Shown: one piece after another, positions 17,197 through 63,505 of the stretch | Layout of the letters: the number at the start of each line of letters is the position of its first letter | How positions within the stretch are numbered: position 1 is the stretch's first letter | Origin: Candidatus Magasanikbacteria bacterium CG10_big_fil_rev_8_21_14_0_10_36_32 | GTDB taxonomy: Bacteria; Patescibacteriota; Patescibacteriia; Magasanikbacterales; GWA2-37-8 | DNA length: 64,000 nt | Assembly (NCBI GenBank): GCA_002778465.1 | Contig: PFBV01000003.1 | Span: 303,766 to 367,765 of the forward strand | Direction: 5' to 3' | Made by a program: the position numbers and the translations under genes | The notes under the pieces: generated by a model | What the model was told of the DNA's origin: nothing | Databases searched by the model: none | The model's input: only the letters and a program-made list of their open reading frames with translations

Positions 17197-17198
17197 AT

Positions 17199-17753: not shown

Positions 17754-17759
17754 AATTTT

Positions 17760-18863: not shown

Positions 18864-18867
18864 AAAA

Positions 18868-20013: not shown

Positions 20014-20015
20014 AA

Positions 20016-23265: not shown

Positions 23266-24306
23266 ATGTCTCAATGGTTGGATTTTAAAAAAAATTCACG
23301 CTTGCGTGAGATTTATGAAAAAAGATTGCAAATAACGCGTTTAATTCGCGAATTTTTTTGGGCGCAAAATTTTCAAGAAGTGGAAACTCCAATTGCTCTT
23401 AAAAAACCGGGTCAGGAGCCATATTTAAATCCTATTACAACTTTATTTCATAATCCGCTCGGCAAAAAGCATAAGTTTTATTTACAAACTTCACCAGAGT
23501 TTGCTATGAAAAAATTATTAGCGGCCGGTTGGACAAAAATTTTTCAAATCTGTAAATGTTTTCGTGATTTTGAATCTTTTGGCGGAATTCATAATACCGA
23601 GTTTACTATGATTGAATGGTATAGGTCGCCAGGGAAATTAGAAGATATTATGAATGACATTGAAAAACTTTTTAAATTTATTGCCGGTCAATTGAATATA
23701 CAAGAAGTTGAATATAAAAATAAAAAAATAAATGTAATTGGCGAATGGGAGAGATTGTCTATGCGCGAAGTTTGGCAAAAATTTTTAAATGTGGAATTAA
23801 ATAATTATTTAACCATTGAATCAATTTTAAAATTGGTTCAAAGTCGAGATTGGCAAATTTCTGAAAATGACGCATATGAAGATTTGTTTTATAAAATATT
23901 TTTAAATGAAATTGAACCAAAGTTGGGTTTTGAAAAACCGGTAATGATTTATGATTATCCGGAACAGATGACTTCACTTTCTTGTTTATCAGAAGAAGAT
24001 TCGCGTTATGCCGAGCGTTTTGAATTATATATTGGCGGATTGGAATTGGCCAATGCTTTTGGCGAGTTAACTGATGCTGCTGAACAAAAGAAGCGTTTAG
24101 AAGCCGATAAAGAAAAAAGAAAACAATTGAATAAAGAAATTTGGCCAGTTGATTCTGATTTTATTTTTGCTTTAGAATCTGGAATTCCAAAAGCCGGAGG
24201 AATAGCTTTGGGTGTTGATCGTTTAGTAATGCTTTTTACCGGCGCAAAAGATATTAATGAGGTGATTTTTCAGGCAGTCGGGGACCAGCTTGACCCTATA
24301 AAGTAG
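23266..24306 (+). CDS. epmA: EF-P-lysine lysyltransferase EpmA (PoxA/GenX, truncated class II LysRS paralog). Start chosen at the ATG after AAGGAA; the ORF track extends to 23200
   Basis: Class II aaRS motifs: FQICKCFRDFE (motif 2 region), TEFTMIEWY, GGLELANAFGELTD and GIALGVDRLVML (motif 3). No anticodon-binding domain. Confidence 0.75.
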   Translation: MSQWLDFKKNSRLREIYEKRLQITRLIREFFWAQNFQEVETPIALKKPGQEPYLNPITTLFHNPLGKKHKFYLQTSPEFAMKKLLAAGWTKIFQICKCFRDFESFGGIHNTEFTMIEWYRSPGKLEDIMNDIEKLFKFIAGQLNIQEVEYKNKKINVIGEWERLSMREVWQKFLNVELNNYLTIESILKLVQSRDWQISENDAYEDLFYKIFLNEIEPKLGFEKPVMIYDYPEQMTSLSCLSEEDSRYAERFELYIGGLELANAFGELTDAAEQKKRLEADKEKRKQLNKEIWPVDSDFIFALESGIPKAGGIALGVDRLVMLFTGAKDINEVIFQAVGDQLDPIK

Positions 24307-24377
24307 AACTTCGTTCATTTCAGCGTTGACAGAATCATTAAAAAATGTTATCTATTAAACATAGTTCATTAAAATAT

Positions 24378-24430
24378 ATTCCCGGCCTTCGTTGGGTTTT
24401 GTTAGAAACAGATTCCAACGAAGGCCGGGA
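24378..24430. repeat. 17-bp perfect inverted repeat (GC-rich hairpin) at the left edge of GC-rich island 2
   Basis: TTCCCGGCCTTCGTTGG, 19-nt loop, CCAACGAAGGCCGGGAA. Confidence 0.6.
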
Positions 24431-24462
24431 ATTGTCCCGTCTTCCTTCTGTCCGCGGAGCGG

Positions 24463-25107
24463 TTGGAAGTACTCCCTTTTTGGGAGAAGGACTTTGTGGC
24501 CGGTTTGGTTCGCGCGGCCGTGGAGAACACGTTTTTCACCGCCATCTCGGACAAGGACGCTCCGGCTCGTTTCGCCGACGCAGTCGCCAAGTGGCGCAAG
24601 CTCGCCAGCGACCTCGGCTACACCGGCCCGGTGCTCTGGCAGGTGAAGGCAGGATTCACTCTGAAGAAGCACGCCCCGCTTGCCGGTCCTTGCTATAAGC
24701 GGTTCGGCTATCTGCAGAACTGCTGGTCGCTTCAGAACGACGAGCCGACGGTTGGCTCTATGGTATTCTATATCCCGCGCATCGTCGCGACGGAGAAGAA
24801 CACCGAAGAACAGAAGCAGGCGCTGGCTAAGCTTCGCAAGAAGTACGGCCTGCCCGAGAGCCATCTGTCCTCGTTCGGTTCGGCTGCCTTGGTTTCCGGT
24901 CTTATTCTGGCGCATTTCAAGCGCACGGGCGAGCGCGCTCCGTTCAACAGAAATTGGGTTCGCACCGATACCCTGCGCACGGATGACTACCGGCTCGGTC
25001 TCGGCGACTTTGATGAGGACGGGCTCTACTGCGACCACTGCCGCTGGGGTGACGGCTGCGGCGTTAGTCTCGGGGTCTTTCCTTTGGGGGTGGAGCTGGG
25101 TTTCTAG
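24463..25107 (+). CDS. GC-rich (about 60% GC, high GC3) foreign ORF of unknown function. It has no in-frame ATG start (TTG at 24463) and is possibly a gene remnant
   Basis: Coherent high-GC3 codon usage in this frame only. The minus-strand 227-aa ORF is Arg/Leu/Ala-rich antisense noise. The first in-frame ATG is near 24760. Confidence 0.4.
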   Translation: MEVLPFWEKDFVAGLVRAAVENTFFTAISDKDAPARFADAVAKWRKLASDLGYTGPVLWQVKAGFTLKKHAPLAGPCYKRFGYLQNCWSLQNDEPTVGSMVFYIPRIVATEKNTEEQKQALAKLRKKYGLPESHLSSFGSAALVSGLILAHFKRTGERAPFNRNWVRTDTLRTDDYRLGLGDFDEDGLYCDHCRWGDGCGVSLGVFPLGVELGF

Positions 25108-25278
25108 GTCGCTTAGTTCTTTTTGTTAGTTCTTGGGTCCTTGGCGTTTTGGCGCTTAGGATCCTTTTTTATTTCATTTTTGCGGAGTATAATAGCAGTC
25201 TGTTCATTAATTTTATCTATGGTAAATTTGCGCGAAAAAATCAGCGGGCTTAATTTGTCCGTTGTGGAAGAAGGAGTT

Positions 25279-25752
25279 ATGTATTTTTTTATTTACGGTT
25301 TAATCGGCTGGCTGATTGACACTGTTTTTGAATCAATGATTTTTGACCAATTGTTACCCGGTGGAATGTTCCAAAGTTTCCGGCTGCCGATTCCATTTGC
25401 CCCGATTTACGGCTTTGGTGCTTTGGCAATTATTTATCTGACCAAGCGGTTATGGAATAAATCTTTAATATTATCCGTTCCGTTGGCCGGGATTATAGCG
25501 ACGGCGGTAGAATATTTTGGAGGAATAATAACGGTTGCTTTATTTGGACATCGCGCATGGGATTACAGCGGGAGTTTTTTAAATTTACACGGGCACACTA
25601 ATTTATTTTATGCTATTGCCTGGACATTTCTTGGCTGGAGTTTTATTAAGTTCATTCATCCGCCGGTAGAAAAAATAGTAAAAGTTTTTTTAATGCGTCT
25701 GCGTAAAAATATTGATACGGATATTCTTGACAAGGAAATTAAAATTCGTTAA
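25279..25752 (+). CDS. Small polytopic membrane protein, 'putative ABC-transporter type IV' (CmpB-like) family. Start refined to the ATG after GAAGGAG
   Basis: MYFFIYGLIGWLIDTVFE...RLPIPFAPIYGFGALAI is the characteristic motif of this family. A strong SD lies 7 nt upstream of 25279. Confidence 0.5.
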   Translation: MYFFIYGLIGWLIDTVFESMIFDQLLPGGMFQSFRLPIPFAPIYGFGALAIIYLTKRLWNKSLILSVPLAGIIATAVEYFGGIITVALFGHRAWDYSGSFLNLHGHTNLFYAIAWTFLGWSFIKFIHPPVEKIVKVFLMRLRKNIDTDILDKEIKIR

Positions 25753-25786
25753 AATCATATTGCTTTATTATTTAAAATTTTTATTT

Positions 25787-26347
25787 ATGGCTTCTACATC
25801 TGATATCCGCAAAGGAGCGGTGATAAAAAATCAAAATGATTTATATGTAGTGGTTGATTTTCAACATGTAAATCCGGGCAAGGGCGCGGCTTTTGTTCGT
25901 ACTCGTATGAAATCTTTAGCCAATGGAAAAGTAATTGAAAATACTTATAAAAGCGGAGAAAGTTTAGATATTGTTAGTGTTCAGTTTCAGACTATGCAAT
26001 ATTTATACAAAACCGATGGACGCTATGCTTTTATGAATAACCAAACCTATGAACAGATTGAAATGGATGCCGATTTAATTGGTGATGATGCAAAATATTT
26101 AAAAGAAGGGTTAGAATTGGTTGTTGGTTTATATGGAGAACGTCCAGTCAGTGTGCAATTACCGAAAAAAATTCAGTATAAAGTAGTGGAAGCTCCACCG
26201 GCCGTAAAAGGTGACAGCGCTTCCGGCAATGTAACCAAGGAAATTGTTTTAGAAAATGGGTTGCATATTCAAGCACCGATATTTATTAAAGAAGGAGAAG
26301 AAATCTTGGTTAATACGGAAACGGGAGATTATTCCACTAGAGCGTAA
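25787..26347 (+). CDS. efp: Translation elongation factor P (start refined to MASTSDIRKG)
   Basis: MASTSDIRKGAVI...HVNPGKGAAFVRTRMKSL with the conserved lysine in the PGKG loop (the EpmA-type modification site). Confidence 0.9.
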   Translation: MASTSDIRKGAVIKNQNDLYVVVDFQHVNPGKGAAFVRTRMKSLANGKVIENTYKSGESLDIVSVQFQTMQYLYKTDGRYAFMNNQTYEQIEMDADLIGDDAKYLKEGLELVVGLYGERPVSVQLPKKIQYKVVEAPPAVKGDSASGNVTKEIVLENGLHIQAPIFIKEGEEILVNTETGDYSTRA

Positions 26348-50129: not shown

Positions 50130-50221
50130 TTAAAACAAAAAAATAATATCATAATTCCAATAAAAAATCAAGAGCTTATTATATTATATATAGATAGCAG
50201 AGGAGGTTGATTCGTGGTATA

Positions 50222-52015
50222 ATGATTTATATGAGACCAATAAATAATCAAATGGTTGGTTTTACGTTAATTGAAGTTATTGTCGCGATAGCTATTTTTG
50301 CGTTATTTTCTTTTGGGGTTTTTGAAGGAGTGAGATTTATTTATAAAGTAGTTTATGTTTCACGTATTAGAATTTTGGAAACAGCCTTATTAAGTGAAGA
50401 ATTAGAAATAGTTCGCAATGTATCATATGGTGATGTTGGTATTTCAGGTGGTGTACCGTCTGGAATTTTAGAACATGAAAAAACTGTTACTAAAAATGGT
50501 ATTAATTTTAATTTAATAACGACCGTAAGAAATATTGATGATAGTTTTGATGGTACGATTGGTGGTGAACCCAATGATGTTTCTCCGGCTGATTATAAGT
50601 TGGTTGAAATTTCAGCTATTTGTTCAAACTGTGAGCAGAAAGAACCTGTCATTGTCAGTGCCAGAGTTTCCCCCAAACAACTTGAAGGTGCCAGTGATAA
50701 TGGTGCTTTATTTATTCAAGTATTTGATGCTAATGGTTTACCCGTTGAAGGAGCCAATGTTTATGTAATAAACACTTCAACTTCGCCGGATACTATTATA
50801 GATGACACAACCGATTCAACTGGTTTTCTTCGTATTATTGATACGCCAACAGGTACTTTAAGTTATAATATTTTAGTTACCAAAGATGGTTATTCTTCTG
50901 ATTATACGGTTACATCTTCAGTTGCCAATCCTAATCCTATAATACCCCCAGCCACTGTGATTAGTCAGTCTATTACTGATGTTAGTTTTTCAATTGATAG
51001 GTTGAGTTCAATGGATATTTCAACAGTCAATCAAGGTTGTGCAGCTGTTGGCAGTGTAAAGGTTTTTATGTATGGTGATAAAATTTTAGGAACCGATCCG
51101 TCAATTTATAAATATTCAAGTGGTTTCTATACTGATGGTAGCGGTAACTATAGTTTTCCATCATTGGAATGGGATAAGTATTTTATTGTGGTTACCACCA
51201 CCTATGATGTGGCCGGTTCAATTCCTCTTTTACCTGTTAATTTGACACCAGGTTTACATCAAGAAGCAACATTGGTTTTGCGAACCCACACAACCAATTC
51301 TTTGTTGGTGCAAGTTAAAGATGCTGGTACCGGATTGCCGCTGTCTGACACTAGTGTGCGTTTATATAAAACCGGGTATGATTCAACATTGGTTACGGGT
51401 TTTGGTTATGTTAGACAGACTGATTGGGGCGGTGGCAGCGGACAAACTTTGTTTATTAATGAAACAAAATATTGGACTGACAATGGAAATATTTCAGCTT
51501 CTTCTGGAGATGTTAAGTTAAAAAAATCAGGCAGTCATTACGCGACCAGCGGTTGGTTAGAATCGTCAACTTTTGATTTGGGAACAGTGGTTGATTTTAG
51601 TAATATAGTTATTTCCGGCAATCAACCGGCGCAAACCGGAGTTAATTCATTAAAATTTTATATTGCTACCAGTAATTCAAGTACACCGGTCAGTTGGAAT
51701 TTTGTTGGTCCCGATGGTACGGCAGGAACTTATTATACGGTGACCAGTACATTGATTAATAGCATGCATGATGACCAGCGTTATTTGCGTTATCGCGCGT
51801 TTTTAACTACTACTGACAACCATTATACGCCGACATTGTCTGAATTGGCTTTTACTTTTACTACCGGTTGTACGCCGCCGGGTCAAGTATTTTTTTATTC
51901 TTTATCCGCCGATGATTATGTTTGCGAACTAACTCGTAGTGGTTATGCTTCGTCCAGTAGCACAATAACTATTTCGGGCAACAATACTTTAACCGCTTTT
52001 ATGTCACCAGAATAA
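50222..52015 (+). CDS. Large (about 600 aa) protein with type IV prepilin N-terminal cleavage/methylation motif. Start uncertain (ORF track 50207 TTG; ATG at 50222 or 50231)
   Basis: ...NNQMVG|FTLIEVIVAIAIFALFSF is the classic G/FTLIE prepilin signature plus hydrophobic helix. AGGAGG at 50201-50206. Confidence 0.6.
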   Translation: MIYMRPINNQMVGFTLIEVIVAIAIFALFSFGVFEGVRFIYKVVYVSRIRILETALLSEELEIVRNVSYGDVGISGGVPSGILEHEKTVTKNGINFNLITTVRNIDDSFDGTIGGEPNDVSPADYKLVEISAICSNCEQKEPVIVSARVSPKQLEGASDNGALFIQVFDANGLPVEGANVYVINTSTSPDTIIDDTTDSTGFLRIIDTPTGTLSYNILVTKDGYSSDYTVTSSVANPNPIIPPATVISQSITDVSFSIDRLSSMDISTVNQGCAAVGSVKVFMYGDKILGTDPSIYKYSSGFYTDGSGNYSFPSLEWDKYFIVVTTTYDVAGSIPLLPVNLTPGLHQEATLVLRTHTTNSLLVQVKDAGTGLPLSDTSVRLYKTGYDSTLVTGFGYVRQTDWGGGSGQTLFINETKYWTDNGNISASSGDVKLKKSGSHYATSGWLESSTFDLGTVVDFSNIVISGNQPAQTGVNSLKFYIATSNSSTPVSWNFVGPDGTAGTYYTVTSTLINSMHDDQRYLRYRAFLTTTDNHYTPTLSELAFTFTTGCTPPGQVFFYSLSADDYVCELTRSGYASSSSTITISGNNTLTAFMSPE

Positions 52016-52017
52016 TT

Positions 52018-52635
52018 ATGAAATTATTTTGTCAAGACAAACGAGGATTAACTTTGATAGAACTTTTAGTTAGTATTGGTATTTTTGTTTTGGTATCTGC
52101 CGCTCTAGCTTCTATTTTAAGTGTTGTGTTTCAAGCCAGAACAATTATTTGGGAACAATTATCTACTCAAAAAGAAGGTCGTCAGATTGTGCAAGATTTT
52201 ACCAATGAATTGCGTAGTGCGACTGCGTCGTCAATCGGTGCTTATTCTTTGGAATCAGCACAAAATGATGAAATTATTTTTTACAGCAATATAGACAGCG
52301 ATAGTTGGAGAGAACGAATTAGATATTTTTTGTCAGATGGAATATTACAAAAAGGAATTACAAAACCTAGTGGCACCCCTTTGGGTTACTCTACCTCAAC
52401 CGACGAAGTTATTACGGAGATGATACATGATGTTATTAATGGAACCACTACGCCAGTTTTTTATTACTATGATGAAAACTACACTGGTTCGGAGAACCCG
52501 ATGACGTTGCCAATTGTATTGTCAGAGGTTAGGGTGGTCGGTATAAAATTAATTTTGGAGGAAAATCCGCGGATGTCGCCAGCGCCATTGCAAGTTGAAA
52601 CTAAAGCGCAAATTAGAAATCTAAAAAGCAATTGA
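52018..52635 (+). CDS. Type IV pilin/pseudopilin-like protein
   Basis: KRG|LTLIELLVSIGIFVLVSAALASIL prepilin motif. Confidence 0.6.
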   Translation: MKLFCQDKRGLTLIELLVSIGIFVLVSAALASILSVVFQARTIIWEQLSTQKEGRQIVQDFTNELRSATASSIGAYSLESAQNDEIIFYSNIDSDSWRERIRYFLSDGILQKGITKPSGTPLGYSTSTDEVITEMIHDVINGTTTPVFYYYDENYTGSENPMTLPIVLSEVRVVGIKLILEENPRMSPAPLQVETKAQIRNLKSN

Positions 52636-52645
52636 TTGTATTGTT

Positions 52646-54037
52646 ATGATTAAAATTAGTTTTTTTAAAAATTCGTTTAAATTTGATTGTCGTGGCAATA
52701 TTATGATATTTGCAGTAATTTTTGGTGTAATTGCCACATCAGTTGTGACCATAGCCATCTCTAGTTATGCAATTTTTGAAAATCGTGCTTCTCTTAGTAA
52801 ACATAATCGCGAACAAGCCTTTCAAATTGCTGAGGCGGGAATTGATTATTACCGTTGGCATTTAGCTCACGATAAAGCCGATTATTATGATGGTAATAGT
52901 AGTTCTACACCCGGACCGTATGTTCATGAATATCAGGATAAAGATGGTAATCCAATAGGATATTTTTCTCTAGTTATTACTCCGCCAGTATCAACCTCAA
53001 CTATTATTTTAATAGAATCAACCGGTTGGGTGAATGATCAGCCGAATAGTCGCAGAACCATAAAAGCACGGTTGGGTTTTCCGGCCATGACTGATTATTC
53101 TTTTTTAACTAAAACAGATGTTTGGATTGGCGATACGGAAGTGACTCACGGAAAGTTTCATGCTAATGGCGGTATTAGATTTGATGGAACCGGTGATGCG
53201 CCAATTACCAGTGCTGTGGAAACCTATATTTGTAAAGCTCATCATGGTTGCGGTTGGGTATCAAAACCTGGAATTTGGGGAACGGGTGGTCCGACATTGT
53301 ATTGGGAATACCCTGTGCCGGCAGTCGATTTTAATATTGTCACTGCTAAGTTGGCCAATATTAAGTATACAGCCGATTCAGATGAAGGATTGTATTTAAC
53401 TTCATCCGGACAACAGGGTTATCGTTTACAATTTACTGCCGATGGTCAAATTAATGTTAATAAAGTTTTAACCACTGATTGTCATGATGGTTATGATGTA
53501 GACGCCAGTCATAAGACACTTTTTTGCATTGATGCCAAAACTTTTGACACCACCACAACTTATAATATGCCGACTAATGGTTATATATATGTTGATGATA
53601 CAGTTTGGGTTAATGGAATAGTTAATGGGCGAGCTACCATAGGCACAGCCGAAGACAAAGATATTATCATTAATGATGATATTATTTATGTTGCCAAAGA
53701 CGGTAATCATGTTTTGGGTTTAATTTCAGAACAAAATATTTTATTACCTTATCATTCCCCGGAAGATTTAGAAGTTGATGCGGCAATTTTGGCGCAAAAT
53801 GGCGCGGCTAAACGTTATTATTATTCAGGTAATACAAAAGACAGTTTGTTGATTTATGGTTGTGTTATTTCTAACGGAACATGGACTTGGAGTTGGGTGT
53901 CTGGTGGCGGTTCAATTGTTTCCGGTTATGAATATACCAATTCTACTTATGATGCTAATCTAACTTATAGCCCGCCACCCGGTTTTCCGGTAGGTTCGGA
54001 ATACAATATTATCAGCTGGGAAGAAATCAAGCCTTAA
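52646..54037 (+). CDS. PilX-N-like minor pilin / pilus-associated protein
   Basis: N-terminal hydrophobic helix then NREQAFQIAEAGIDYYRWHL resembling the PilX N-terminal domain (QAFYAAEAG). Confidence 0.4.
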   Translation: MIKISFFKNSFKFDCRGNIMIFAVIFGVIATSVVTIAISSYAIFENRASLSKHNREQAFQIAEAGIDYYRWHLAHDKADYYDGNSSSTPGPYVHEYQDKDGNPIGYFSLVITPPVSTSTIILIESTGWVNDQPNSRRTIKARLGFPAMTDYSFLTKTDVWIGDTEVTHGKFHANGGIRFDGTGDAPITSAVETYICKAHHGCGWVSKPGIWGTGGPTLYWEYPVPAVDFNIVTAKLANIKYTADSDEGLYLTSSGQQGYRLQFTADGQINVNKVLTTDCHDGYDVDASHKTLFCIDAKTFDTTTTYNMPTNGYIYVDDTVWVNGIVNGRATIGTAEDKDIIINDDIIYVAKDGNHVLGLISEQNILLPYHSPEDLEVDAAILAQNGAAKRYYYSGNTKDSLLIYGCVISNGTWTWSWVSGGGSIVSGYEYTNSTYDANLTYSPPPGFPVGSEYNIISWEEIKP

Positions 54038-55022: not shown

Positions 55023-56423
55023 ATGATTAAAATTACAAAGAAATTTTATCCCCTATTTTTAGTAGTGGTTTTTTTATTATTTTCAGGTTTTGGCTGTAAA
55101 GGATTATCACAAACTGAATTGCAAGCTACAAAATCTGTGGAATTGGAATACTGGACAGTTTATGATGATGTTGATGCAATGCAAGCTCAAATTAATAATT
55201 ATCGAGCGCAAAGACCGTATTTGACTGTAACAATAAGACAATTGCGAGCTGATGAGTTATATCCGCGTTTGATTGAAGCTTTAGCGGAAGATAAGGGTCC
55301 TGATATTGTTTCGGTTCAGGCAAAAAATATTCGCAGTTTTCAAAGTAAATTGGCAACCATGCCATCCAGTGTAAAAGACACTACAATTACAGTTCAAAAA
55401 AATGTGGTTGGTACAGAAACAATAGTTAATACCGCTTCAATAAATTTACCCTCGGTTAGTCAGATTGACAGAGAATATGTTCAAACAGTTAAAAAGGATG
55501 TAATTGTTGATAACAAAATTTATGGTTTGCCAATGTCTTTAGATACTATGGCAATTTATTATAATAAAGATCTATTAGATCGTTCCGGCGTGCCGGAACC
55601 GCCAACAAATTGGAACGATTTTCAGGCGGCGGTTAGAAAGATTACAAAATACAACAAAGAAACAGGACAACTTATTCAGTCCGGTGCGGCTTTGGGCAGT
55701 AGTGCGAATATAGAAAATTTTGATGATATTTTATATATTCTTTTTAAACAAAGCGATGTGGATTTTATAGATAGAAATGGCCGGGTCGCCTTTCATGTTG
55801 TGCCAAGTAATTTAAAAAGTTCCGAGTCACCGTCTACAGGAGTGATGAGTTTTTATACCGATTTTGCTAATTCTGCTCGCGATACATATACTTGGAATTC
55901 CCAAATGGAAAATTCTTTAGACAGTTTTACCAAAGGGAAAGTCGCTTTCTTTTTTGGGTATAGTTATCATAATGGTATAATTAAGACTCGCGCTCCGCAA
56001 CTTAATTATGGCGTTACTCCGATGATTCAGCTTAATGCTGAAAAACCAGTTAACGCGGCGGATTATTGGATTCAAGCGGTGGTGCAGAAATCAAAAAAAC
56101 AAAATGAAGCATGGGGTTTGATAAATTATTTAACTCACAGTTCAAAAGCGGTTGAAGAATATTTAACTGCCACCAAGCGACCTGCCGCTATGCGTTCATT
56201 AATTAATAAACAAAAAGAAGATGTTGATTTGTCTCCATTTGCCGGGCAATTACTTATCGCTGAAAATTGGTATCGTGGTAAAAATTATGATGGTGCCTCG
56301 CAAGCTCTTGGCGCTATGGTTGAAGAATGGTTAAATACACCGATTACCGATGCCAGTCGAGTAGCTCAGTGGCAACAAGATGTTTTGAATCGCGCCGCTT
56401 CGAAAGTTAATCAAACTTTTTAG
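55023..56423 (+). CDS. Extracellular solute-binding lipoprotein (ABC transporter SBP family 1-like)
   Basis: Lipobox LFSGFGC; size and pattern are consistent with a sugar-type SBP. Confidence 0.45.
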   Translation: MIKITKKFYPLFLVVVFLLFSGFGCKGLSQTELQATKSVELEYWTVYDDVDAMQAQINNYRAQRPYLTVTIRQLRADELYPRLIEALAEDKGPDIVSVQAKNIRSFQSKLATMPSSVKDTTITVQKNVVGTETIVNTASINLPSVSQIDREYVQTVKKDVIVDNKIYGLPMSLDTMAIYYNKDLLDRSGVPEPPTNWNDFQAAVRKITKYNKETGQLIQSGAALGSSANIENFDDILYILFKQSDVDFIDRNGRVAFHVVPSNLKSSESPSTGVMSFYTDFANSARDTYTWNSQMENSLDSFTKGKVAFFFGYSYHNGIIKTRAPQLNYGVTPMIQLNAEKPVNAADYWIQAVVQKSKKQNEAWGLINYLTHSSKAVEEYLTATKRPAAMRSLINKQKEDVDLSPFAGQLLIAENWYRGKNYDGASQALGAMVEEWLNTPITDASRVAQWQQDVLNRAASKVNQTF

Positions 56424-56424
56424 T

Positions 56425-56865
56425 ATGAAATCCATTTTAAAATTAATTGTTATTTTAATTTGTTTACAGTTTTTATTGTTACCGTCGGATGCGGTTTTTG
56501 CTCAAGAAACAAGCGCTCAGTCGTCTGGTTTTCTTCCGGAATGTATATTAAACGGGGATATTAGCGGGGGACAATGCGGTGACAGTGCGGATATATTTTT
56601 ATGGTTAGCAATTAATGTTGGACGCTATTTGTTTTCGTTTATTGGAGCTTTGGCTTTATTATTTTTTGTTTATGGTGGTGTAATTTTAATTACCTCTCAA
56701 GGTAATCGTGAAAATGTCAGCAAGGGAACCAAAGCAATGGTGGCCGCCGTTACAGGTTTGGTGATTGCTTTTAGTGGTTATGCTTTAATTACTTTCCTTA
56801 GTCAATCGGTTGGAGTTAAATCTGAATTTTTATTAACTCCACAAAATACTGCTACTAAAAAATAA
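56425..56865 (+). CDS. Pilin-like array member 1: secreted two-helix protein (VirB2/TrbC-like topology)
   Basis: Signal peptide ...DAVFA|QE. Helix 1 LFSFIGALALLFFVYGGVILITSQGNRENVSKGTK, then helix 2 AMVAAVTGLVIAFSGYALITF. Confidence 0.5.
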   Translation: MKSILKLIVILICLQFLLLPSDAVFAQETSAQSSGFLPECILNGDISGGQCGDSADIFLWLAINVGRYLFSFIGALALLFFVYGGVILITSQGNRENVSKGTKAMVAAVTGLVIAFSGYALITFLSQSVGVKSEFLLTPQNTATKK

Positions 56866-56869
56866 ATTT

Positions 56870-57346
56870 ATGAAATTTTTAAGAGTTAAAATTTTAATTT
56901 GTTTGTTGGTTAGTTTATTTTTGGTTGCCAGTGTAAAAGCTGAAGAATGTGACCCTCTTTATCAATCATGTGAAGGACAGTCAGTTGAATCTGCTGAACA
57001 AGAATTGCAAGATATTTTGGGTGAATCACAATCGGTTCAAGAACCAAGCACTCAAGCAGAAGTGTATGAATTTAAAAATATTAAAAAACAAGCGGCCAGT
57101 TTGAATCCGTTGAATATTTCTGGTCCGTCTGATTTGTTTGCTAATGCTATAAATTTAATGATGGCCTTTATTGGTTCAATCGCCATCCTTTTATATATTT
57201 ACGCTGGATTTTTGTGGATGTCTGCCGCTGGTAATTCTGAACGGGTCGGTAAAGCTAAAACTATTCTTATTTGGACTACTTTAGGTGCGGTTGCTATGGG
57301 TGCCAGTTATATGATAGTTAAAACCGTGCTTGAGAAAGTGGGTTAA
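56870..57346 (+). CDS. Pilin-like array member 2
   Basis: Signal ...VKA|EE; IAILLYIYAGFLWMSAAGNSERVGKAKTILIWTTLGAVAMGASYMIV. Confidence 0.55.
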   Translation: MKFLRVKILICLLVSLFLVASVKAEECDPLYQSCEGQSVESAEQELQDILGESQSVQEPSTQAEVYEFKNIKKQAASLNPLNISGPSDLFANAINLMMAFIGSIAILLYIYAGFLWMSAAGNSERVGKAKTILIWTTLGAVAMGASYMIVKTVLEKVG

Positions 57347-57356
57347 TTATTATTTT

Positions 57357-57719
57357 ATGAAAAAAATAATATTATTTTTGACAATAGTTAGCTGTATATG
57401 GACAGCGATGCCTTTGAGCACAACCACAGTTAATGCGGCTGAACCAGAAACCGTGAAATTAGAAAATCCTTTAACAGTTGATGCTAATCCGTCGTCAATA
57501 ATTGGTTTGTTTATCAAAGCAATCTTAGGAATAGTTGGTGGGTTGGCTTTGGTTATGGCTGTGTATGGCGGTTTTCAATGGCTGACGGCCGCAGGCAACA
57601 AAGAAAAGATAGATAGTGGTAGTAAAACTATGCTTTGGGCGGTGGTTGGTTTGATACTTACTCTAAGCAGTTATTTATTGGTGGATACTTTCTTGAATTT
57701 TTTAAAGGGTGGCAGATAA
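57357..57719 (+). CDS. Pilin-like array member 3 (start refined)
   Basis: Signal ...VNA|AE; ILGIVGGLALVMAVYGGFQWLTAAGNKEKIDSGSKTMLWAVVGLILTLSSYLLV. Confidence 0.55.
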   Translation: MKKIILFLTIVSCIWTAMPLSTTTVNAAEPETVKLENPLTVDANPSSIIGLFIKAILGIVGGLALVMAVYGGFQWLTAAGNKEKIDSGSKTMLWAVVGLILTLSSYLLVDTFLNFLKGGR

Positions 57720-57805
57720 AAATTAAGATTGTGCGATGTTTCGTTTATTGTTATAATAAATATAAGTTAAAATATGATAAATTTTACTGGAAAGGGGGTG
57801 ACAAT

Positions 57806-58195
57806 ATGAGCAAATTATCAGTATATATAGCGTTTATTTTGGTTGCAGCTTGTGCTATGTTTGTTTTGACGCCAGTTTTAGCCGCTGATCCTATTACTGC
57901 AGGAGATCTTGGTTTAAGTTATGGCGCGGAAACAGGTTTGGGTACCAAAGATATCCGTACCACCGTTGCGCAGGTAATCAAAGTGGCGATGGGTTTATTG
58001 GGTATCGTGGCTGTCGTTATAATTTTAATCGGCGGTTTCACTTGGATGACTGCCGGTGGTAATGAAGATAAGGTCTCCGAAGCGAAGAAATGGATTTTCT
58101 CCGGTGTTATCGGTTTGGCTATTATCTTGTCGGCTTATGCTTTAACCAGCTTTATTATCAATCAGTTGGTCAACGCTACTACTAGTACGATATAA
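57806..58195 (+). CDS. Pilin-like array member 4 (start refined to the ATG after the AAAGGGGGTG SD)
   Basis: Signal ...VLA|ADP; GLLGIVAVVIILIGGFTWMTAGGNEDKVSEAKKWIFSGVIGLAIILSAYALTSF. Confidence 0.6.
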   Translation: MSKLSVYIAFILVAACAMFVLTPVLAADPITAGDLGLSYGAETGLGTKDIRTTVAQVIKVAMGLLGIVAVVIILIGGFTWMTAGGNEDKVSEAKKWIFSGVIGLAIILSAYALTSFIINQLVNATTSTI

Positions 58196-58204
58196 ACTTT
58201 TTTT

Positions 58205-58235
58205 ATCAGGGGGTTCGCGCGCGCAACCCCCTGAT
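58205..58235. terminator. Palindromic GC hairpin flanked by a T-run and an A-run (bidirectional terminator-like) splitting the array
   Basis: ATCAGGGGGTTGCGCGCGCAACCCCCTGAT-type palindrome (ATCAGGGGGTTCGCGCGCGCAACCCCCTGAT) with TTTTTTTT before and AAAAAA after. Confidence 0.5.
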
Positions 58236-58289
58236 AAAAAATTGGATTATGAACTTTTTAATGAAGATTTCATAATCCAGTTAAATCCT

Positions 58290-58712
58290 ATGAGTTTAAA
58301 CCGGAAAATTTTTTTATTCATTATTGTGACGGCCATCAGTGTCGGTTTTTTGTTGAATGTCAGAATGGTAAGGGGAGCGGATGATTATGGATTTGAACAA
58401 ACCGCACAAGGAACTGACTTGCCGGCTTTATCAATCAGTAAAGGTACACCAGAATCATTGGCTGAAATAATTGTAAAGCGAGTTTTATTTTTTGTTGGAA
58501 CAATTTTCTTTTTATTGATTCTTTATGCGGGAATAAGTTGGATGACTGCTGCTGGTTCCACTGAAAAAGTTAATACTGCTAAAACTATTTTAGAAACAGC
58601 TATTATTGGTTTGTTGGTTATTACCGCTTCCTATGCGATTTCTAATTATATTTTTGAAAAATTTACCGGTGTAAACAAAACTTCTACAGATATTCCCACT
58701 GCCACAGAATAA
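58290..58712 (+). CDS. Pilin-like array member 5 (start refined)
   Basis: Signal ...VRGA|DD; FFVGTIFFLLILYAGISWMTAAGSTEKVNTAKTILETAIIGLLVITASYAISNY. Confidence 0.55.
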   Translation: MSLNRKIFLFIIVTAISVGFLLNVRMVRGADDYGFEQTAQGTDLPALSISKGTPESLAEIIVKRVLFFVGTIFFLLILYAGISWMTAAGSTEKVNTAKTILETAIIGLLVITASYAISNYIFEKFTGVNKTSTDIPTATE

Positions 58713-58727
58713 TAATCATTAAAATTT

Positions 58728-59753
58728 ATGAGTTTTGGTTTTAAAGTTAAATTAACGATGTTGTTGGCAGCTGTTGGTATAATGACAGCTTCTGTTTTTT
58801 GTTATGCTGCAGATTTTGGTTTAGGAGAAGCCGGTTCTGTTTCTGGGCTGACAAAAAATAAAATTACCGAAGCTGGCAGTATTCCCGCTGTTTTGGGTGA
58901 TTTGGTTGGTATAGCGCTTTCATTATTAGGAATTTTTTTCTTTATTTTAGTTTTGTATGCCGGTTTTATTTGGATGACCGCCGCCGGTTCTGGTGAACAG
59001 GTTGATAAAGCAAAAAAGATTTTAATGTCTGGCGCTATTGGTTTGGTAATAGTTTTATCAGCTTATACAATTACCAGTTATGTTTTTACGGAATTTTTAG
59101 CTGGCGCGCCGACCGGACAAACAGGTGGTGATGTTTGCAAAACAGGGGCAGATGGACAAGATTGTGGTGATAATTCTCTTTGTTTGAATAAAAAATGTGT
59201 TTCGGAGTGTGTCTATACATATGGAACAAATGCTAAATGCAAAGCGGCAGGCAGTTGTGCGGGTGTGGAATTAACTGGTTTTTGTCCGGGCGGAACTAAT
59301 AATAAATGTTGCGTGCCTCAGTATGATTATGATTTTGTGCACAAAGTTAGTGGAGGAACATCTGATACCGGATCAGTAATGATATTTGAATCATGTTCAA
59401 CTAAAGGTGGTTATTGTATTAAGCAAGGTGATGCTGGTTGTGGAACATATCCTGGTTATAGTGAAATTCCTGGAAATTTTTCTGATTGTTCAGGTGAAAC
59501 TTCATCTTGTTGTGTTAACAGTTGTCGCACAAAAGGCGGTATGTGTCTCAGTGCCAATGAATGCAGTAATGCGTCAGGAAAAGAAGAGGCTGAATCTTGT
59601 GGAGATGGACAAGTTTGTTGTGTAACCTGCGTATCTCAAGGTGGAAGTTGTTTTTTTTCTGGTAGTGAATCTTGCAGTGGCAAAGTATTGAGTGGTTCTA
59701 AAAATGGTTGTGGTACCGGTTTAAGTTGTTGTATAGGCGGATTTTTACAATAA
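58728..59753 (+). CDS. Pilin-like array member 6 with long Cys-rich C-terminal extension (about 3.5 tandem roughly 38-aa CC-containing repeats)
   Basis: ILVLYAGFIWMTAAGSGEQVDKAKKILMSGAIGLVIVLSAYTITSY, then CCVPQ...KGGYCIKQGDAGCG, SSCCVNSCRTKGGMCLSANECSNASG, CCVTCVSQGGSCFFSGSESCSG and CCIGG. Confidence 0.6.
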   Translation: MSFGFKVKLTMLLAAVGIMTASVFCYAADFGLGEAGSVSGLTKNKITEAGSIPAVLGDLVGIALSLLGIFFFILVLYAGFIWMTAAGSGEQVDKAKKILMSGAIGLVIVLSAYTITSYVFTEFLAGAPTGQTGGDVCKTGADGQDCGDNSLCLNKKCVSECVYTYGTNAKCKAAGSCAGVELTGFCPGGTNNKCCVPQYDYDFVHKVSGGTSDTGSVMIFESCSTKGGYCIKQGDAGCGTYPGYSEIPGNFSDCSGETSSCCVNSCRTKGGMCLSANECSNASGKEEAESCGDGQVCCVTCVSQGGSCFFSGSESCSGKVLSGSKNGCGTGLSCCIGGFLQ

Positions 59754-59781
59754 TGTTTTTAAACTTCTTTTTAAATAATTT

Positions 59782-60276
59782 ATGAAAAAACTTTTTGTTC
59801 AATTACTCATTGTCACTTGTTTATTTATACCGACCATGGCATTAGCTGATACTTTTGGTTCAGGCTTATTAAGTCAATCGGTTCAAGGTGTTGGTTTAGA
59901 ACAGAATTTAGAAAATAGCGTGGCCAATGTCATTAGTACAGTTTCAACCGTGGTCGGCACGATATTTTTAATCTTGACTGTGGTGGCAGGAATTATGTGG
60001 ATGACCGCCGCTGGCAATGAAGATAAAATTTCTAAAGCTAAACAAATGTTGGCCGCCGCCGCCGTCGGTTTATTTATTGTTATGTCGGCTTACACAATTA
60101 CTTATTTTGTCACCAAAAAAGTTGGTAATGCTTCTGGTGGTGGCACAGGAGAAACGACTTGTAGTTGCGCCGGATGTTATTGTTCCACAGTGACAGCGTG
60201 TACAAGTGATGTGGGTACAGCATTGACAGGTACTACTTGTTCAGGAGTGTGTTGTCAACCAACTTTTGCTGATTAA
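59782..60276 (+). CDS. Pilin-like array member 7 with short Cys-rich tail
   Basis: Signal ...ALA|DT; IFLILTVVAGIMWMTAAGNEDKISKAKQMLAAAAVGLFIVMSAYTITYF, then TCSCAGCYCSTVTACTSD...CSGVCCQP. Confidence 0.6.
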   Translation: MKKLFVQLLIVTCLFIPTMALADTFGSGLLSQSVQGVGLEQNLENSVANVISTVSTVVGTIFLILTVVAGIMWMTAAGNEDKISKAKQMLAAAAVGLFIVMSAYTITYFVTKKVGNASGGGTGETTCSCAGCYCSTVTACTSDVGTALTGTTCSGVCCQPTFAD

Positions 60277-60283
60277 ATTTTTT

Positions 60284-60652
60284 ATGAAGAAATTTATTGT
60301 TTTATTTATCGCTATATTGTTACTGTTGTCGCCGGCTATGTCGGCTGCTGAGGGTTTGGGTGATGCCGCAGGAAAACTTGGTTCGTTTCAGACAGGTGGA
60401 TTAAGCAGTGATTTGGGTGGCACGGCGCAAAATGTGGTTAAGGCCATATTTTGGGTGGTTGGCACAACTTTTCTTTTATTATCAGTTTATGGTGGTATTG
60501 TTTGGATTAAAGCGGCTGGCCGAGAGGAAGAAGTAAATCGCGCTAAAAAAATTATTGTTGCTGCTGTTATAGGATTAGTCGTTGTTTTTGCGTCTTATGC
60601 AATAACAAATTTTGTAATGAACAGGGTACAAGGAATTGAAACTACAGAATAA
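60284..60652 (+). CDS. Pilin-like array member 8 (start refined)
   Basis: Signal ...MSA|AEG; FLLLSVYGGIVWIKAAGREEEVNRAKKIIVAAVIGLVVVFASYAITNF. Confidence 0.55.
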   Translation: MKKFIVLFIAILLLLSPAMSAAEGLGDAAGKLGSFQTGGLSSDLGGTAQNVVKAIFWVVGTTFLLLSVYGGIVWIKAAGREEEVNRAKKIIVAAVIGLVVVFASYAITNFVMNRVQGIETTE

Positions 60653-60681
60653 AATTTTTTAAAGTAATTAAATTTATTTTT

Positions 60682-61095
60682 ATGAAAAAAGTTTTGATTT
60701 TATTGGCTATGTGGCTGATTAGCGGAATACTATGTTGTAATATGACAATGGCGGCAGATGGAGGAATGGCGGAGCGTATAGCGGAAAAAGCTGGTTATAC
60801 TACCGAAGGAATAACTGAATATAGTTTATCTCAAAACATTGGTGTGATAATTCGGAGTGTTTTGTCAGTTCTCGGTGTAATATTTTTAGTTTTGACTATA
60901 TATGCCGGAATTTTATGGGGAACAGCTGCTGGTAATGAAGATAAGGTTGATAAAGCCAAAAAAATTCTGATTTCCGCATTTATTGGTTTGGTAATTGTTG
61001 GAGCCGCTTACGGAATTACCTCTTTAGTCTTTTATTTTCTTGGAGTTGGTTCGGCGCCGTCAACCGATGTTGATGTACCGTGGTCTCAACAATAA
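60682..61095 (+). CDS. Pilin-like array member 9
   Basis: Signal ...TMA|AD; IFLVLTIYAGILWGTAAGNEDKVDKAKKILISAFIGLVIVGAAYGITSL. Confidence 0.55.
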   Translation: MKKVLILLAMWLISGILCCNMTMAADGGMAERIAEKAGYTTEGITEYSLSQNIGVIIRSVLSVLGVIFLVLTIYAGILWGTAAGNEDKVDKAKKILISAFIGLVIVGAAYGITSLVFYFLGVGSAPSTDVDVPWSQQ

Positions 61096-61107
61096 TTATT
61101 ATAAAAT

Positions 61108-61566
61108 ATGAAAAATATTTCTAAGACAAAGTTTATTTTAACCGTAATAAGCATACTGACTATAACAGGAACTATTTTAGCGTTTGTTCCTGATTTTGCG
61201 AGTTCGGCCAATTTAAGTACGGAAATGGAAGCTCAATTAAAATCCGCGGCGGAAAGTGGTGCTGGTTATGGCGCGCCGACAGATCCTCGCACTACAGCCA
61301 GTGTGATCATTCGTTCATTACTTGGAGTGGTAGGAATAGTGATGGTTTGTTTGATGATTTATGCCGGTTTTATTTGGATGACCGCTGCCGGCAATGAAGA
61401 TAAAGTGGCGACGGCAAAAAAAATAATTGCCTCGGCGGCAATTGGTTTTATTATTGTGCTGACAGCATATTCAATTACTTGGTTCCTGACATATACGGCT
61501 TTTGGCGGCAGAAGTACACAATTTCCTCAAGATACATCAGAAGACCCATGGGGAAGCACTGATTAA
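61108..61566 (+). CDS. Pilin-like array member 10
   Basis: VMVCLMIYAGFIWMTAAGNEDKVATAKKIIASAAIGFIIVLTAYSITWF. Confidence 0.55.
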   Translation: MKNISKTKFILTVISILTITGTILAFVPDFASSANLSTEMEAQLKSAAESGAGYGAPTDPRTTASVIIRSLLGVVGIVMVCLMIYAGFIWMTAAGNEDKVATAKKIIASAAIGFIIVLTAYSITWFLTYTAFGGRSTQFPQDTSEDPWGSTD

Positions 61567-62645
61567 GAAAAAATTTGTTTCAGAATTTTTTCATTAACCA
61601 ATTTTGAAAGATTGGGTTTGGTAAAAATATCAGGCCGACGGATTATTTCTTGTAATGCGTCGGTTATTTTGTTTAATTCTGGAATTTGCCGTCCATAATT
61701 ATTTTTTTCGACAAATCGTACATTGGCTTCTTCTTGTCCGGGAATAGGCATAGACAGAAGAGCTGGTTTTTGAAGGAATAAAGTTTCAGTAACACTTAAT
61801 CCGCCTGGTTTGGTTAGAATCACGTCAGCCAAACGCATTAGTTCATCTATTTTGGTAGTATAGGTAATTACTCGATAATTTATTGAATTTAATTGAAATT
61901 TATTTAATTCTTTAAATATTTTTTTATTATTTTTTCCTACCACTATAATTAAGTTTATATTTTTAAAATCATTTATTATTTCTTTGACAAATGGGACAGG
62001 ATCAATCAAACCAATGCCACCGGTTAAAATTAGAATTGTCGGCCAGTCATTGTTAATGCGCCATTTATTTTTTAATTCATTTATATTTTTTTCTTTTAGA
62101 AATTCAGGATGTATCGGAATGCCGGTATAAAAAGCTTGCCGACCCATTTGTTTCAGTTCATCGCAAATATCATTACTCGGAGTAAAAAAATAACGAATTT
62201 GCGGAGCTAAACAAACTTTGTTGATTTCATAATCGGTAATCAAAAAATCAATAGGTATTTTGTCGGCGTATTGATTAGCAAAAGCTGAGGCAAGAAAATG
62301 GGTGCAAAATATTTGATCTGGTTGATATTCTTTAATAAATTTATTAAATTTCCGCAAATTTATTTTTAAGAGCAAACTTATTTTGTTTAAAACATCCGGA
62401 CTTTTTGAAAAATCAAACATTTGATAAAGCAGCCCGTAAATATTAGGCAGATGGCGTGCTAAAAAATGATACGATGAAGTAATGCTTTTTCCGAATAAGC
62501 CGCCAGAATAATCCATAATATCAATATGCGCGGATTTGATTTGAGGATATTTCGTCCGACAAGTTAGATATAACGCTTCAGCAGCACGGACATGTCCGGT
62601 GCCGGCTGAGCAGGAAAGAAATAATATTTTTTTTGGTTGAGACAT
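61563..62645 (-). CDS. GT28-family glycosyltransferase (MGDG synthase / processive diacylglycerol glycosyltransferase-like)
   Basis: N-terminal ILFLSCSAGTGHVRAAEAL (G-rich loop with His); C-terminal LTKPGGLSVTE motif of the GT-B MurG/MGD family. Confidence 0.55.
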   Translation of the reverse strand: MSQPKKILFLSCSAGTGHVRAAEALYLTCRTKYPQIKSAHIDIMDYSGGLFGKSITSSYHFLARHLPNIYGLLYQMFDFSKSPDVLNKISLLLKINLRKFNKFIKEYQPDQIFCTHFLASAFANQYADKIPIDFLITDYEINKVCLAPQIRYFFTPSNDICDELKQMGRQAFYTGIPIHPEFLKEKNINELKNKWRINNDWPTILILTGGIGLIDPVPFVKEIINDFKNINLIIVVGKNNKKIFKELNKFQLNSINYRVITYTTKIDELMRLADVILTKPGGLSVTETLFLQKPALLSMPIPGQEEANVRFVEKNNYGRQIPELNKITDALQEIIRRPDIFTKPNLSKLVNEKILKQIFS

Positions 62646-62708: not shown

Positions 62709-62780
62709 GGTGACCAGAGGGAGTTGAACCCTCGCTAGCGGGACCACAACCCGCTGTTCTACCGTTGAACTATGGCCACC
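62709..62780 (-). tRNA. tRNA-His (anticodon GTG) with encoded G-1
   Basis: Reverse complement G-GTGGCCATAGTTCAACGGTAGAACAGCGGGTTGTGGTCCCGCTAGCGAGGGTTCAACTCCCTCTGGTCACC-C; extra 5' G pairing with the discriminator C. Confidence 0.85.
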
Positions 62781-62847: not shown

Positions 62848-62922
62848 TGGTGACCTCGCTAGGAATCGAACCTAGGTCCAGAGCTTAGAAGGCTCTTGTT
62901 CTATCCATTGAACTACGAGGCC
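62848..62922 (-). tRNA. tRNA-Arg (anticodon TCT), CCA encoded
   Basis: Reverse complement GGCCTCGTAGTTCAATGGATAGAACAAGAGCCTTCTAAGCTCTGGACCTAGGTTCGATTCCTAGCGAGGTCACCA. Confidence 0.85.
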
Positions 62923-63019: not shown

Positions 63020-63505
63020 ATGCGTAAAATTTTAATAGTTTTTATTTTGATGTTTTCAATATTGTTTATCGCCACCCCGGCTCAAGCTGCTTTTGGTTTG
63101 GAACAAACTGCGCAAAAAGCTGGTTATAATTTAGGCGCTACCAGCCCGGCCACCACGGTTAAAACAGTGGTGACAGTAGTTTTAGGATTTGTTGCTTTGA
63201 TATTTTTTGCTTTAACATTATATGCCGGCATAATTTGGATGACTGCCCGCGGAAAAGAAGACAAAGTGGAATCAGCCAAAAATATTATAGAATCGGCGAT
63301 ACTTGGTTTAATAATTGTTGGAGCCGCTTATGCCATTACGACTTTTGTTTTAAGCCGATTGGGGAGTAGTGGAACAACCGAAGGTTGTTGTATTCAATAT
63401 AATGAAGACTCTACCACAAAAGGTTCGGTTGAAGGGGTGCTTAATGATGAATGTTTGAATGAGGGTGGTGTTTGGTTTGAGGGAAAATGTCCATCAATAC
63501 AATAA
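63020..63505 (+). CDS. Pilin-like array member 11 (detached copy) with Cys-rich tail (start refined)
   Basis: Signal ...AQA|AFG; IFFALTLYAGIIWMTARGKEDKVESAKNIIESAILGLIIVGAAYAITTF, then GCCIQYNEDSTTKGSVEGVLNDECLNEGGVWFEGKCP. Confidence 0.6.
   Translation: MRKILIVFILMFSILFIATPAQAAFGLEQTAQKAGYNLGATSPATTVKTVVTVVLGFVALIFFALTLYAGIIWMTARGKEDKVESAKNIIESAILGLIIVGAAYAITTFVLSRLGSSGTTEGCCIQYNEDSTTKGSVEGVLNDECLNEGGVWFEGKCPSIQ

Follow-up and report, generated by a model that had tools for sequence, protein, structure and literature searches.

The final 7.6 kb of the DNA analysed here, a 64-kb stretch of contig PFBV01000003.1 from Candidatus Magasanikbacteria (hereafter the window), holds eleven small genes of a common design, ten of them in tandem and the eleventh further downstream. 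We focus on the sixth, member 6, which encodes a pilin with a long Cys-rich tail. An original prediction made from the sequence alone had described Cys-rich tandem-repeat domains on three pilin-like paralogs, members 6, 7 and 11. A Pfam scan bears out the pilin-like nature of the carriers: all eleven paralogs match PF18895 (T4SS_pilin; type IV secretion system (T4SS) pilin, VirB2/TrbC-like), the match of member 4 being seen via the called genes on identical contigs. The scores of members 6, 7 and 11 exceed the curated gathering threshold of 26.6 bits (Table 1); those of members 2 (24.9 bits) and 5 (21.6 bits) fall short of it, yet these two have the same architecture as the other paralogs.

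Each paralog starts with a signal-peptide-like N-terminus and an outer N-terminal segment, continues with a pair of hydrophobic helices connected through a short, lysine-rich loop (motif W-M-T-A-A-G-N-E-x-K) and ends in a C-terminal tail that may be short or long. Hydropathy profiles give three hydrophobic segments and K/R-rich loops for members 7, 8 and 11, and alignment gives member 6 an equivalent layout. Pairwise identity among the array paralogs is low, at 23-51% in the core alignment. Member 6 itself is 100% identical to the NCBI 'hypothetical protein COU29_02555' of Candidatus Magasanikbacteria, part of the Candidate Phyla Radiation (CPR), and its gene is unchanged on all other contigs carrying it, which come from several metagenomes. 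Taken together, these data show member 6 to be a VirB2/TrbC-like type IV secretion pilin of a CPR bacterium.

The tail of member 6 comprises amino acids (aa) 125-341, or 217 residues. As originally stated, it follows the second hydrophobic helix, and no additional hydrophobic segment is found within it. The count of about 28 cysteines is now exactly 28, or 12.9% of the tail, whereas the background in 27 other window genes is 0.84% (binomial P = 2e-24). Rather than the 'about 3.5 repeats' first proposed, these cysteines form a four-Cys prelude (C137, C146, C152 and C157) and four complete six-Cys units, R1 to R4, with the general pattern C-x6-9-C-x5-7-C-x8-15-C-x5-7-CC, in which the CC pair closes each unit. 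The repeat motif given at the time, CC-V-x-x-C-x-x-K/Q-G-G-x-C, fits approximately at the R2/R3 and R3/R4 junctions and only there, straddling the unit boundaries. R1 carries the motif G-F-C-P-G-G-x-N-N-K-C-C-V-P, and successive distal units are separated by joints of only 2-3 residues. The C-terminus of member 6 is thus shown to be a modular stalk composed of a ten-Cys unit (hairpin plus R1), a flexible linker and three back-to-back six-Cys units. The tail has no tandem repeat at the DNA level, indicating that the copies are old.

Table 1. Features of the pilin array and of member 6, in window positions. L001 is a syntenic array from another metagenome and L002 a more distant syntenic array from a Patescibacteria genome; pLDDT is the predicted local distance difference test score of the AlphaFold model.
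Feature	Positions	Strand	Evidence or remark
Ten head-to-tail VirB2-like pilin paralogs, members 1-10	56425..61566	+	PF18895 matches and core alignment
Member 6, 341-aa pilin with long Cys-rich tail	58728..59753	+	PF18895, 35.1 bits
Member 6, predicted Sec signal peptide, aa 1-27, end CYA before AD	58728..58808	+	Hydrophobic segment aa 9-27; cleavage site inferred from A-x-A-like motif
Member 6, pilin core: helix 1, loop WMTAAGSGEQVDKAKK, helix 2	58878..59099	+	82% identity to L001 ortholog
Member 6, tail, aa 125-341	59100-59750		217 aa
Member 6, four-Cys prelude hairpin CKTGADGQDCGDNSLCLNKKC	59136..59198	+	pLDDT ~95, beta-strands; 76% identity to ortholog
Member 6, unit R1, aa 161-195, C-x9-C-x5-C-x8-C-x7-CC, canonical rusticalin-type repeat	59208..59312	+	39.4 bits; pLDDT ~95
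Member 6, flexible linker, weakly conserved, ~27 aa	59313..59393	+	28% identity to ortholog; pLDDT <50 at tail residues 85-94
Member 6, unit R2, aa 223-262, Cx6Cx7Cx15Cx6CC, divergent	59394..59513	+	pLDDT 75-80; 79% identity to ortholog
Member 6, unit R3, aa 266-298, Cx6Cx5Cx11Cx5CC, divergent	59523..59621	+	pLDDT 85-91; 2k2z_A E = 0.041
Member 6, unit R4, aa 301-335, Cx6Cx7Cx11Cx5CC, divergent, then short end I-G-G-F-L-Q	59628..59732	+	pLDDT 84-89
Member 7 pilin	59782-60276		PF18895, 34.8 bits
Member 7 tail, 48 aa, 8 Cys, Gly-rich spacer then TCSCAGCYCS...CSGVCCQP	60130..60273	+
MGDG-synthase/GT28-like glycosyltransferase, interrupts array	61563..62645	-	Same position in L001 and L002 (syntenic)
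Two tRNA genes between glycosyltransferase and member 11	62709-62779, 62851-62922	-
Member 11 pilin	63020-63505		PF18895, 29.1 bits
Member 11 tail, 45 aa, 4 Cys, G-C-C start	63368..63502	+

The isolated tails match nothing in Pfam or NCBIfam, even at E <= 10. We therefore turn to a profile hidden Markov model of the tail, which returned 55 matches among 1.84 billion representative proteins at E <= 1e-3. These fall into two classes: about 12 pilins of the PF18895 family that have a tail of this kind, and secreted proteins in which a single unit, with the consensus C-s-s-q-G-k-s-G-t-C-i-n-t-s-s-C-s-G-t-v-v-s-G-L-C-P-G-G-n-n-i-K-C-C-V-P, occurs up to 21 times. The few named sources of the second class are the fungi Neocallimastix and Entomortierella and a nematode; judging from sequence, two further members, P0023 with its lipoprotein-type signal peptide and P0042 with its high G+C, seem to be bacterial.

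The Neocallimastix protein recovered by the tail profile, A0A1Y2ER48, stands in the published table of proteins with the cysteine-rich repeat (CRR) of ascidian rusticalin (PMC7379824). This beta-defensin-like repeat has the motif Cx6Cx6-7Cx8Cx7CC and HHpred-based remote similarity to beta-defensin and to the tick carboxypeptidase inhibitor (PMC6339383). It is known in 382 proteins, 374 of them eukaryotic, with fungi and animals as the main sources, and often adjoins bacterial-wall hydrolases; the table also includes one protein each from Levybacteria, Parcubacteria (with a transglycosylase domain) and Pacearchaeota (PMC7379824). Like the member 6 units, the CRR has six cysteines, at almost identical spacing to theirs, conserved Gly and Pro around the fourth of them (G-L/F-C-P-G), and tandem copies (Daugavet et al. 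2019/2020).

R1 was scored with a profile built only from non-CPR repeats, using Cys-preserving shuffles as controls. It reaches 39.4 bits (E = 2.6e-14), compared with 4.2+-5.0 bits and a maximum of 25.9 bits for the shuffles (z ~7), and in a six-frame scan of the whole window with the same profile it is the sole match (E = 2e-9). R1 is clearly a member of the published rusticalin-type CRR family, which is absent from Pfam; what had been taken for an unnamed domain already has a name in the literature (PMC6339383, PMC7379824). The Cys framework of R1-R4 is the CRR framework, with loop lengths partly beyond the published ranges. The profile built on 17 distal units of seven pilin tails aligns with the repeat profile at a probability of 87.7% and E = 3.4e-6 (hhalign), showing, at the level of sequence, R2-R4 to be divergent copies of the R1-type module.

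Other searches recovered fewer relatives. With the tail as query, a word-indexed homolog search found only one relative; when a repeat profile of 43 aa was used instead, the short unnamed proteins P0069 and P0070 were its only matches. The genome scan with a narrow alignment found one CPR locus. The metagenome scan gave chiefly low-G+C single-ORF (open reading frame) contigs coding for multi-repeat proteins, which are probably eukaryotic, with CPR loci numbering just 3-4.

The tail is constrained across related arrays. Between member 6 and its L001 ortholog, tail identity is 63% and all 28 cysteines are invariant. Identity is 82% in the core, 76% in the prelude, 55% in R1, 79% in R2, 67% in R3 and 76% in R4 against 28-33% in the linkers; non-Cys residues within the units are 47-76% conserved, versus 28% in the linkers. 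On this comparison, the units behave as constrained folded modules joined by free spacers. Another possibility is that the Cys-rich stretch is no folded domain but a frame artefact or, as considered with the original prediction, a low-complexity one lacking conserved Cys spacing. The invariant cysteines of the ortholog, the recurrence of the architecture in about 12 other pilins, the 55-member family, the confident structural model and the identical gene in several metagenomes refute this explanation, which we regard as virtually impossible.

Orthologous arrays differ in the copy number and the presence or absence of tails, the variation that the original prediction had asked to be compared. 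Across homologous pilins the prelude and R1 are constant and the distal units number 0, 2 or 3, R2 being the one missing from homologs having just two. The prelude precedes unit 1 in nearly all CPR proteins seen (14 of the 55 representative matches); a six-Cys unit without prelude is found in P0189 and in the pilin-like protein of L033. The member 6 counterpart in L002 has the prelude and unit 1 only. In another CPR array, L003, three consecutive pilins bear Cys-rich tails of differing kinds. Two of the pilins there (L003 8596-10363; 303 and 280 aa) have tails of 20-21 cysteines with 'C-x3-D-x-D-C...C-x4-C' motifs resembling the member 6 prelude, suggesting that the four-Cys prelude may be an independent, repeatable module. 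Such appendages are rare: among the best 120 of 756 sequences related to the pilin cores of the window (99-140 aa long, with a median tail of 7 aa), only one has a Cys-rich tail, which is again one six-Cys unit of the member 6 framework.

We modelled the fold of the tail with AlphaFold (AF2). An alignment of two sequences gave a pLDDT of only 50, and an alignment with 85 rows, made up of single repeats as well as pilin tails, gave a mean of 83.8, highest over the prelude and R1 and lowest in the linker (Table 1). By DSSP, each modelled unit begins with a short helix, after which three antiparallel strands form a sheet; C2 lies in the first strand and the CC pair in the third. In the model, this helix and three strands per unit fit the beta-defensin fold (trans-defensin class). 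From the cysteine framework one would expect each unit to have three disulfides, connected C1-C5, C2-C4 and C3-C6, and the prelude to have two more. Foldseek against the PDB places hBD-2 at the top and also lists platypus defensin-like peptide 1 (DLP-1), the matches being non-significant (E = 3.7).

Sequence profiles point to the same class. Of all PDB sequences, eight match the distal-unit profile at E < 10, and seven of these are beta-defensin-fold proteins: DLP-1 (E = 0.021), three tick carboxypeptidase inhibitor entries (E = 0.1-1), two human beta-defensin 1 entries and gallinacin-11. The whole-tail profile recovers the C-terminal domain of the tick carboxypeptidase inhibitor alone (2k2z, E = 0.041), R3 being the most similar unit. 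Beta-defensins, the platypus peptide and the tick inhibitor (1e4q, 1b8w, 1zlh/2k2z) share with the units the C..C..C..C..CC arrangement and the predicted helix and three-stranded sheet, and the CRR is likewise remotely similar to beta-defensins and to the tick inhibitor. This is the only solved-structure class recovered by sequence or fold search, all matches being marginal; since each single E-value is marginal, what counts is that these sequence comparisons appear to agree on one fold class. Of the folds that the original prediction had suggested comparing, defensin is the one indicated. We rejected EGF, granulin and chitin-binding (hevein) folds, as no sequence or fold search returned any of them and a unit that closes with the CC pair fits the defensin framework. 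The R1-type profile matches a CLIP domain in the PDB at E = 0.063. The arthropod CLIP domain (2ike; PF12032) is a six-Cys regulatory module of similar framework, and one family member has a faint Pfam match to it; it differs from the member 6 units in its longer Cys3-Cys4 loop and its attachment to serine proteases, and no score is significant.

The beta-defensin-like framework and predicted fold class would suit repeats that act in the manner of defensins, killing or permeabilising bacteria and so helping to breach the host envelope, perhaps once proteolysis has freed them from the pilin, and the authors who described the CRR suggested an antimicrobial role beside lytic enzymes (Daugavet et al. 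2019/2020). However, no processing site is evident, and the conserved tandem order with 2-3-residue joints suggests an intact stalk; the tail is tethered to a membrane protein and is not a free peptide. Membrane-active defensins are strongly cationic, whereas the tail is acidic, with a net charge of -6 (R1-R4: +1, -3, -2 and +1). This acidic charge makes an antimicrobial or membrane-active role improbable.

The tick carboxypeptidase inhibitor has two domains and acts by C-terminal residues entering the enzyme. Repeats of that type could serve as protease inhibitors, shielding the CPR surface or blocking a host enzyme, as might be suggested by their tandem arrangement, by the best PDB sequence match of R3 and by a regulatory role raised by the CRR's describing authors (PMC6339383). 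Against this, the matches are marginal (E = 0.04-1), the residues past the last CC (IGGFLQ) are variable among homologs beyond 'CC-x-G', and the association with wall hydrolases points elsewhere. We consider inhibition highly improbable.

The original prediction placed the tails outside the cell, and this position is well supported by sequence features. The tail of member 6 is preceded by a cleavable signal peptide and an inter-helix loop rich in Lys and Arg and contains no further hydrophobic segment, which together suggest that both ends of the pilin lie outside the membrane. The 14 presumed disulfides need an oxidising compartment, in agreement with this placement. Independent support comes from the pilin-like proteins at L033 601-1380 and L025 3502-4317, which carry G-L-C-P-G-G-x-N-N-x-C-C in the N-terminal outer region just past the signal peptide (in L033 at the C-terminus too), suggesting that both pilin ends face outward.

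What the stalk may do is suggested by the company that the repeat keeps. The recognisable domains among the 44 non-pilin matches to the tail profile are mostly peptidoglycan hydrolases: Phage_lysozyme (4), Phage_lysozyme2 (4), NLPC_P60 (2), VanY (2) and one each of Glucosaminidase, GH108, GH25, Muramidase and GH19. Non-catalytic repeated modules on wall hydrolases usually target the wall (LysM, SH3b and others). Because the CRR accompanies peptidoglycan hydrolases, and wall hydrolases make up 51% of the annotated proteins in the published set (PMC7379824), we propose that the stalk binds a bacterial envelope component, e.g. peptidoglycan or an attached polymer. This habitual pairing also lends indirect support to the adhesin role first suggested for the tails. 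After Sec export and signal-peptide cleavage, member 6 would form a two-helix hairpin in the membrane with the lysine-rich loop in the cytoplasm and both ends outward, and the stalk would fold in the oxidising exterior. Member 6 could then be a specialised, low-copy adhesin form of the pilin, fastening either the CPR cell or its conduit for secretion to a host bacterium's wall, with bulk subunits supplied by the tail-less paralogs and the short, fast-changing tails of members 7 and 11 as further surface variants. By analogy with the wall hydrolases, we give member 6 about an even chance of being such a host-wall-binding adhesin.

Several points weigh against this proposal. Scored singly with the non-CPR profile, R2-R4 reach only 1.0, 8.5 and 8.6 bits, below the shuffle maxima of 18.1, 13.4 and 10.0, and the Foldseek matches fall short of significance. 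A tblastn search of phage and plasmid collections with the tail gave no match, so known endolysins give it no support. No VirB4 or VirB6 gene is found in the 64-kb window or in the 8 kb downstream, which encode S15, an NYN-domain protein and PNPase. If every subunit bore a 217-aa appendage, a VirB2-type filament could probably not accommodate them, and the minor-subunit role is an assumption. No PF18895 pilus or filament has been reported in CPR bacteria (PMC12102498, PMC11665869), where what the essential type IV secretion system does, pilin arrays included, is termed 'completely unknown' (PMC11665869). The tip location and the common polymerising core of the original prediction are putative, as is the knotting of the disulfides. 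No binding by a CRR has ever been demonstrated, and in the only CRR experiment, on a placozoan lysozyme, the repeat stabilises the pro-enzyme and is then cleaved off (PMC12855814).

That sole experimental result for the family raises the possibility that the repeats only stabilise or chaperone the protein and have no ligand (PMC12855814). However, a core of ~75 aa hardly needs a 217-aa stabiliser, 119 of the 120 related pilins do without one, and the higher conservation of non-Cys residues in the units than in the linkers suggests functional surfaces. A purely stabilising role is accordingly judged quite improbable.

The undemonstrated pili, the lack of T4SS machinery genes near the array and the steric awkwardness that we infer for a large tail in a filament also favour a different explanation, in which the hairpin is merely a membrane anchor and member 6 is a non-polymerising surface protein whose rigid, protease-resistant, disulfide-locked stalk could serve contact, spacing or protection with no pilus involved. 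Consistent with this, the CPR system is akin to monoderm systems, which are without pilins (PMC12102498), and L010 encodes a single-pass membrane protein with three such repeats. Yet the core of member 6 is as conserved as those of the tail-less paralogs (82%), loop motif included, the gene lies within a ten-paralog array, and pilin arrays are close to virB4 in many CPR genomes, one being reported as essential (PMC12102498). We regard an anchor-only function as possible, though rather unlikely.

More tentatively, and on balance doubtfully, the wall-binding adhesin could be part of a wider pattern in which episymbiotic prokaryotes natively possess beta-defensin-like modules as a tool of their surface, recognising the host wall with them from T4SS pilins and wall hydrolases. 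The related CPR arrays L002 and L003 carry the modules, and the published table contains the Levybacteria, Parcubacteria and Pacearchaeota proteins. The eukaryotic repeat found beside antibacterial lysozymes and amidases, and perhaps the beta-defensin fold, would then have a common origin with the prokaryotic module, with transfer in either direction, and member 6 would be the first T4SS pilin with a built-in wall-binding adhesin.

Both parts of member 6 have precedents. PF18895 pilin arrays of 2-11 divergent paralogs occur in 383 Patescibacteria assemblies (Microb Genom 2025, PMC12102498), and the array of the window resembles them in its Pfam family and its tandem divergent paralogs. It differs in not adjoining virB4, and that study makes no mention of Cys-rich C-terminal appendages; a full-text literature search likewise found no account of Cys-rich pilins in Patescibacteria. 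The eukaryotic CRR is found in secreted proteins, N-terminal to wall hydrolases, whereas in member 6 it forms the C-terminus of a bacterial membrane pilin and, unlike the published CRR, is preceded by a CPR-specific four-Cys hairpin and followed by three divergent copies. While the pilin arrays and the CRR are thus already known, a CRR stalk with prelude and variable copies on the C-terminus of a VirB2-like pilin seems undescribed. VirB5/TraC-type pilus-tip adhesins and the display of epitopes on the F-pilin C-terminus place a binding function outside or at the tip of a type IV secretion pilus, the pilin C-terminus being surface-exposed. The VirB5/TraC adhesins are separate proteins, whereas the member 6 domain is fused to the pilin; the likeness is one of concept and implies no homology.

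A central open question about CPR bacteria is the way in which they recognise their hosts and keep hold of them. Member 6 offers a concrete candidate for host-wall recognition and its tail a handle for finding the hosts of uncultivated lineages. A repeat regarded as almost purely eukaryotic is now found in bacteria, within a well-defined structural setting, and this has implications for how beta-defensin-like domains arose.

The tails of members 7 and 11, the sequences of which read exactly as originally quoted, are of another kind. Both are enriched in Cys (P = 7e-9 and P = 6e-4, respectively), but they are not tandem and score -6.7 and 3.7 bits with the non-CPR repeat profile, inside the shuffle range. 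They were therefore rejected as member 6-type repeats, and of the three paralogs first described as carrying tandem-repeat domains only member 6 does so. The member 7 core is nearly constant between arrays, and the tails of its orthologs are unalignable and vary in length and Cys pattern; the member 11 ortholog in L002 is tail-less. A 'G-C-C' start is common to the member 11 tail and the tails of the member 7 orthologs in L001 and L002. Such short 'G-C-C' tails (4-8 Cys) occur on different paralogs of different genomes (window 63368-63502, L001 5838-6371, L002 1069-1632), vary in the arrangement of their cysteines and resemble no known family. Judging by these sequences, they appear to represent a second class of Cys-rich appendage, one that evolves rapidly.

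In both member 1 and member 2 (56425-57346), a pair of cysteines lies in the outer N-terminal region past the signal peptide (ECILNGDISGGQC and ECDPLYQSC), and the pair of member 1 is kept in L001. These pairs are possibly single-disulfide loops on the pilin's other exposed end. The pilin cores between 58728 and 60652 also give sub-threshold matches to NCBIfam NF045849 ('Mbov_0395 family pilin-like conjugal transfer protein', from Mycoplasma integrative conjugative elements), which fit the reported kinship between the CPR secretion system and the conjugation machines of monoderms.

Phospholipid is a known constituent of VirB2-type pili, and the conserved linkage of the glycosyltransferase gene to the array might tie a lipid or glycan modification to the pilins. 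A gene for a solute-binding protein (SBP_bac_1, 55023-56423) ends 1 bp before the array, as it does in L001 (80% identity), and has no adjoining permease gene. Seven further tRNA genes are dispersed across the window. Positions 24001-26000 have a G+C content of 0.447 versus ~0.35 elsewhere and contain several overlapping ORFs on both strands; Rfam gives no family there. The window also contains a separate type IV pilus system at 15142-21746 (-) and 50207-54037 (+), so that the region encodes two unrelated kinds of 'pilin'. Its components are a PilB-like ATPase (T2SSE), PilC (T2SSF), PilM and PilN and, further along, three proteins that show either prepilin N-methylation motifs or an N-terminus of PilX type; one of these three (602 aa) bears a CarboxypepD_reg domain.

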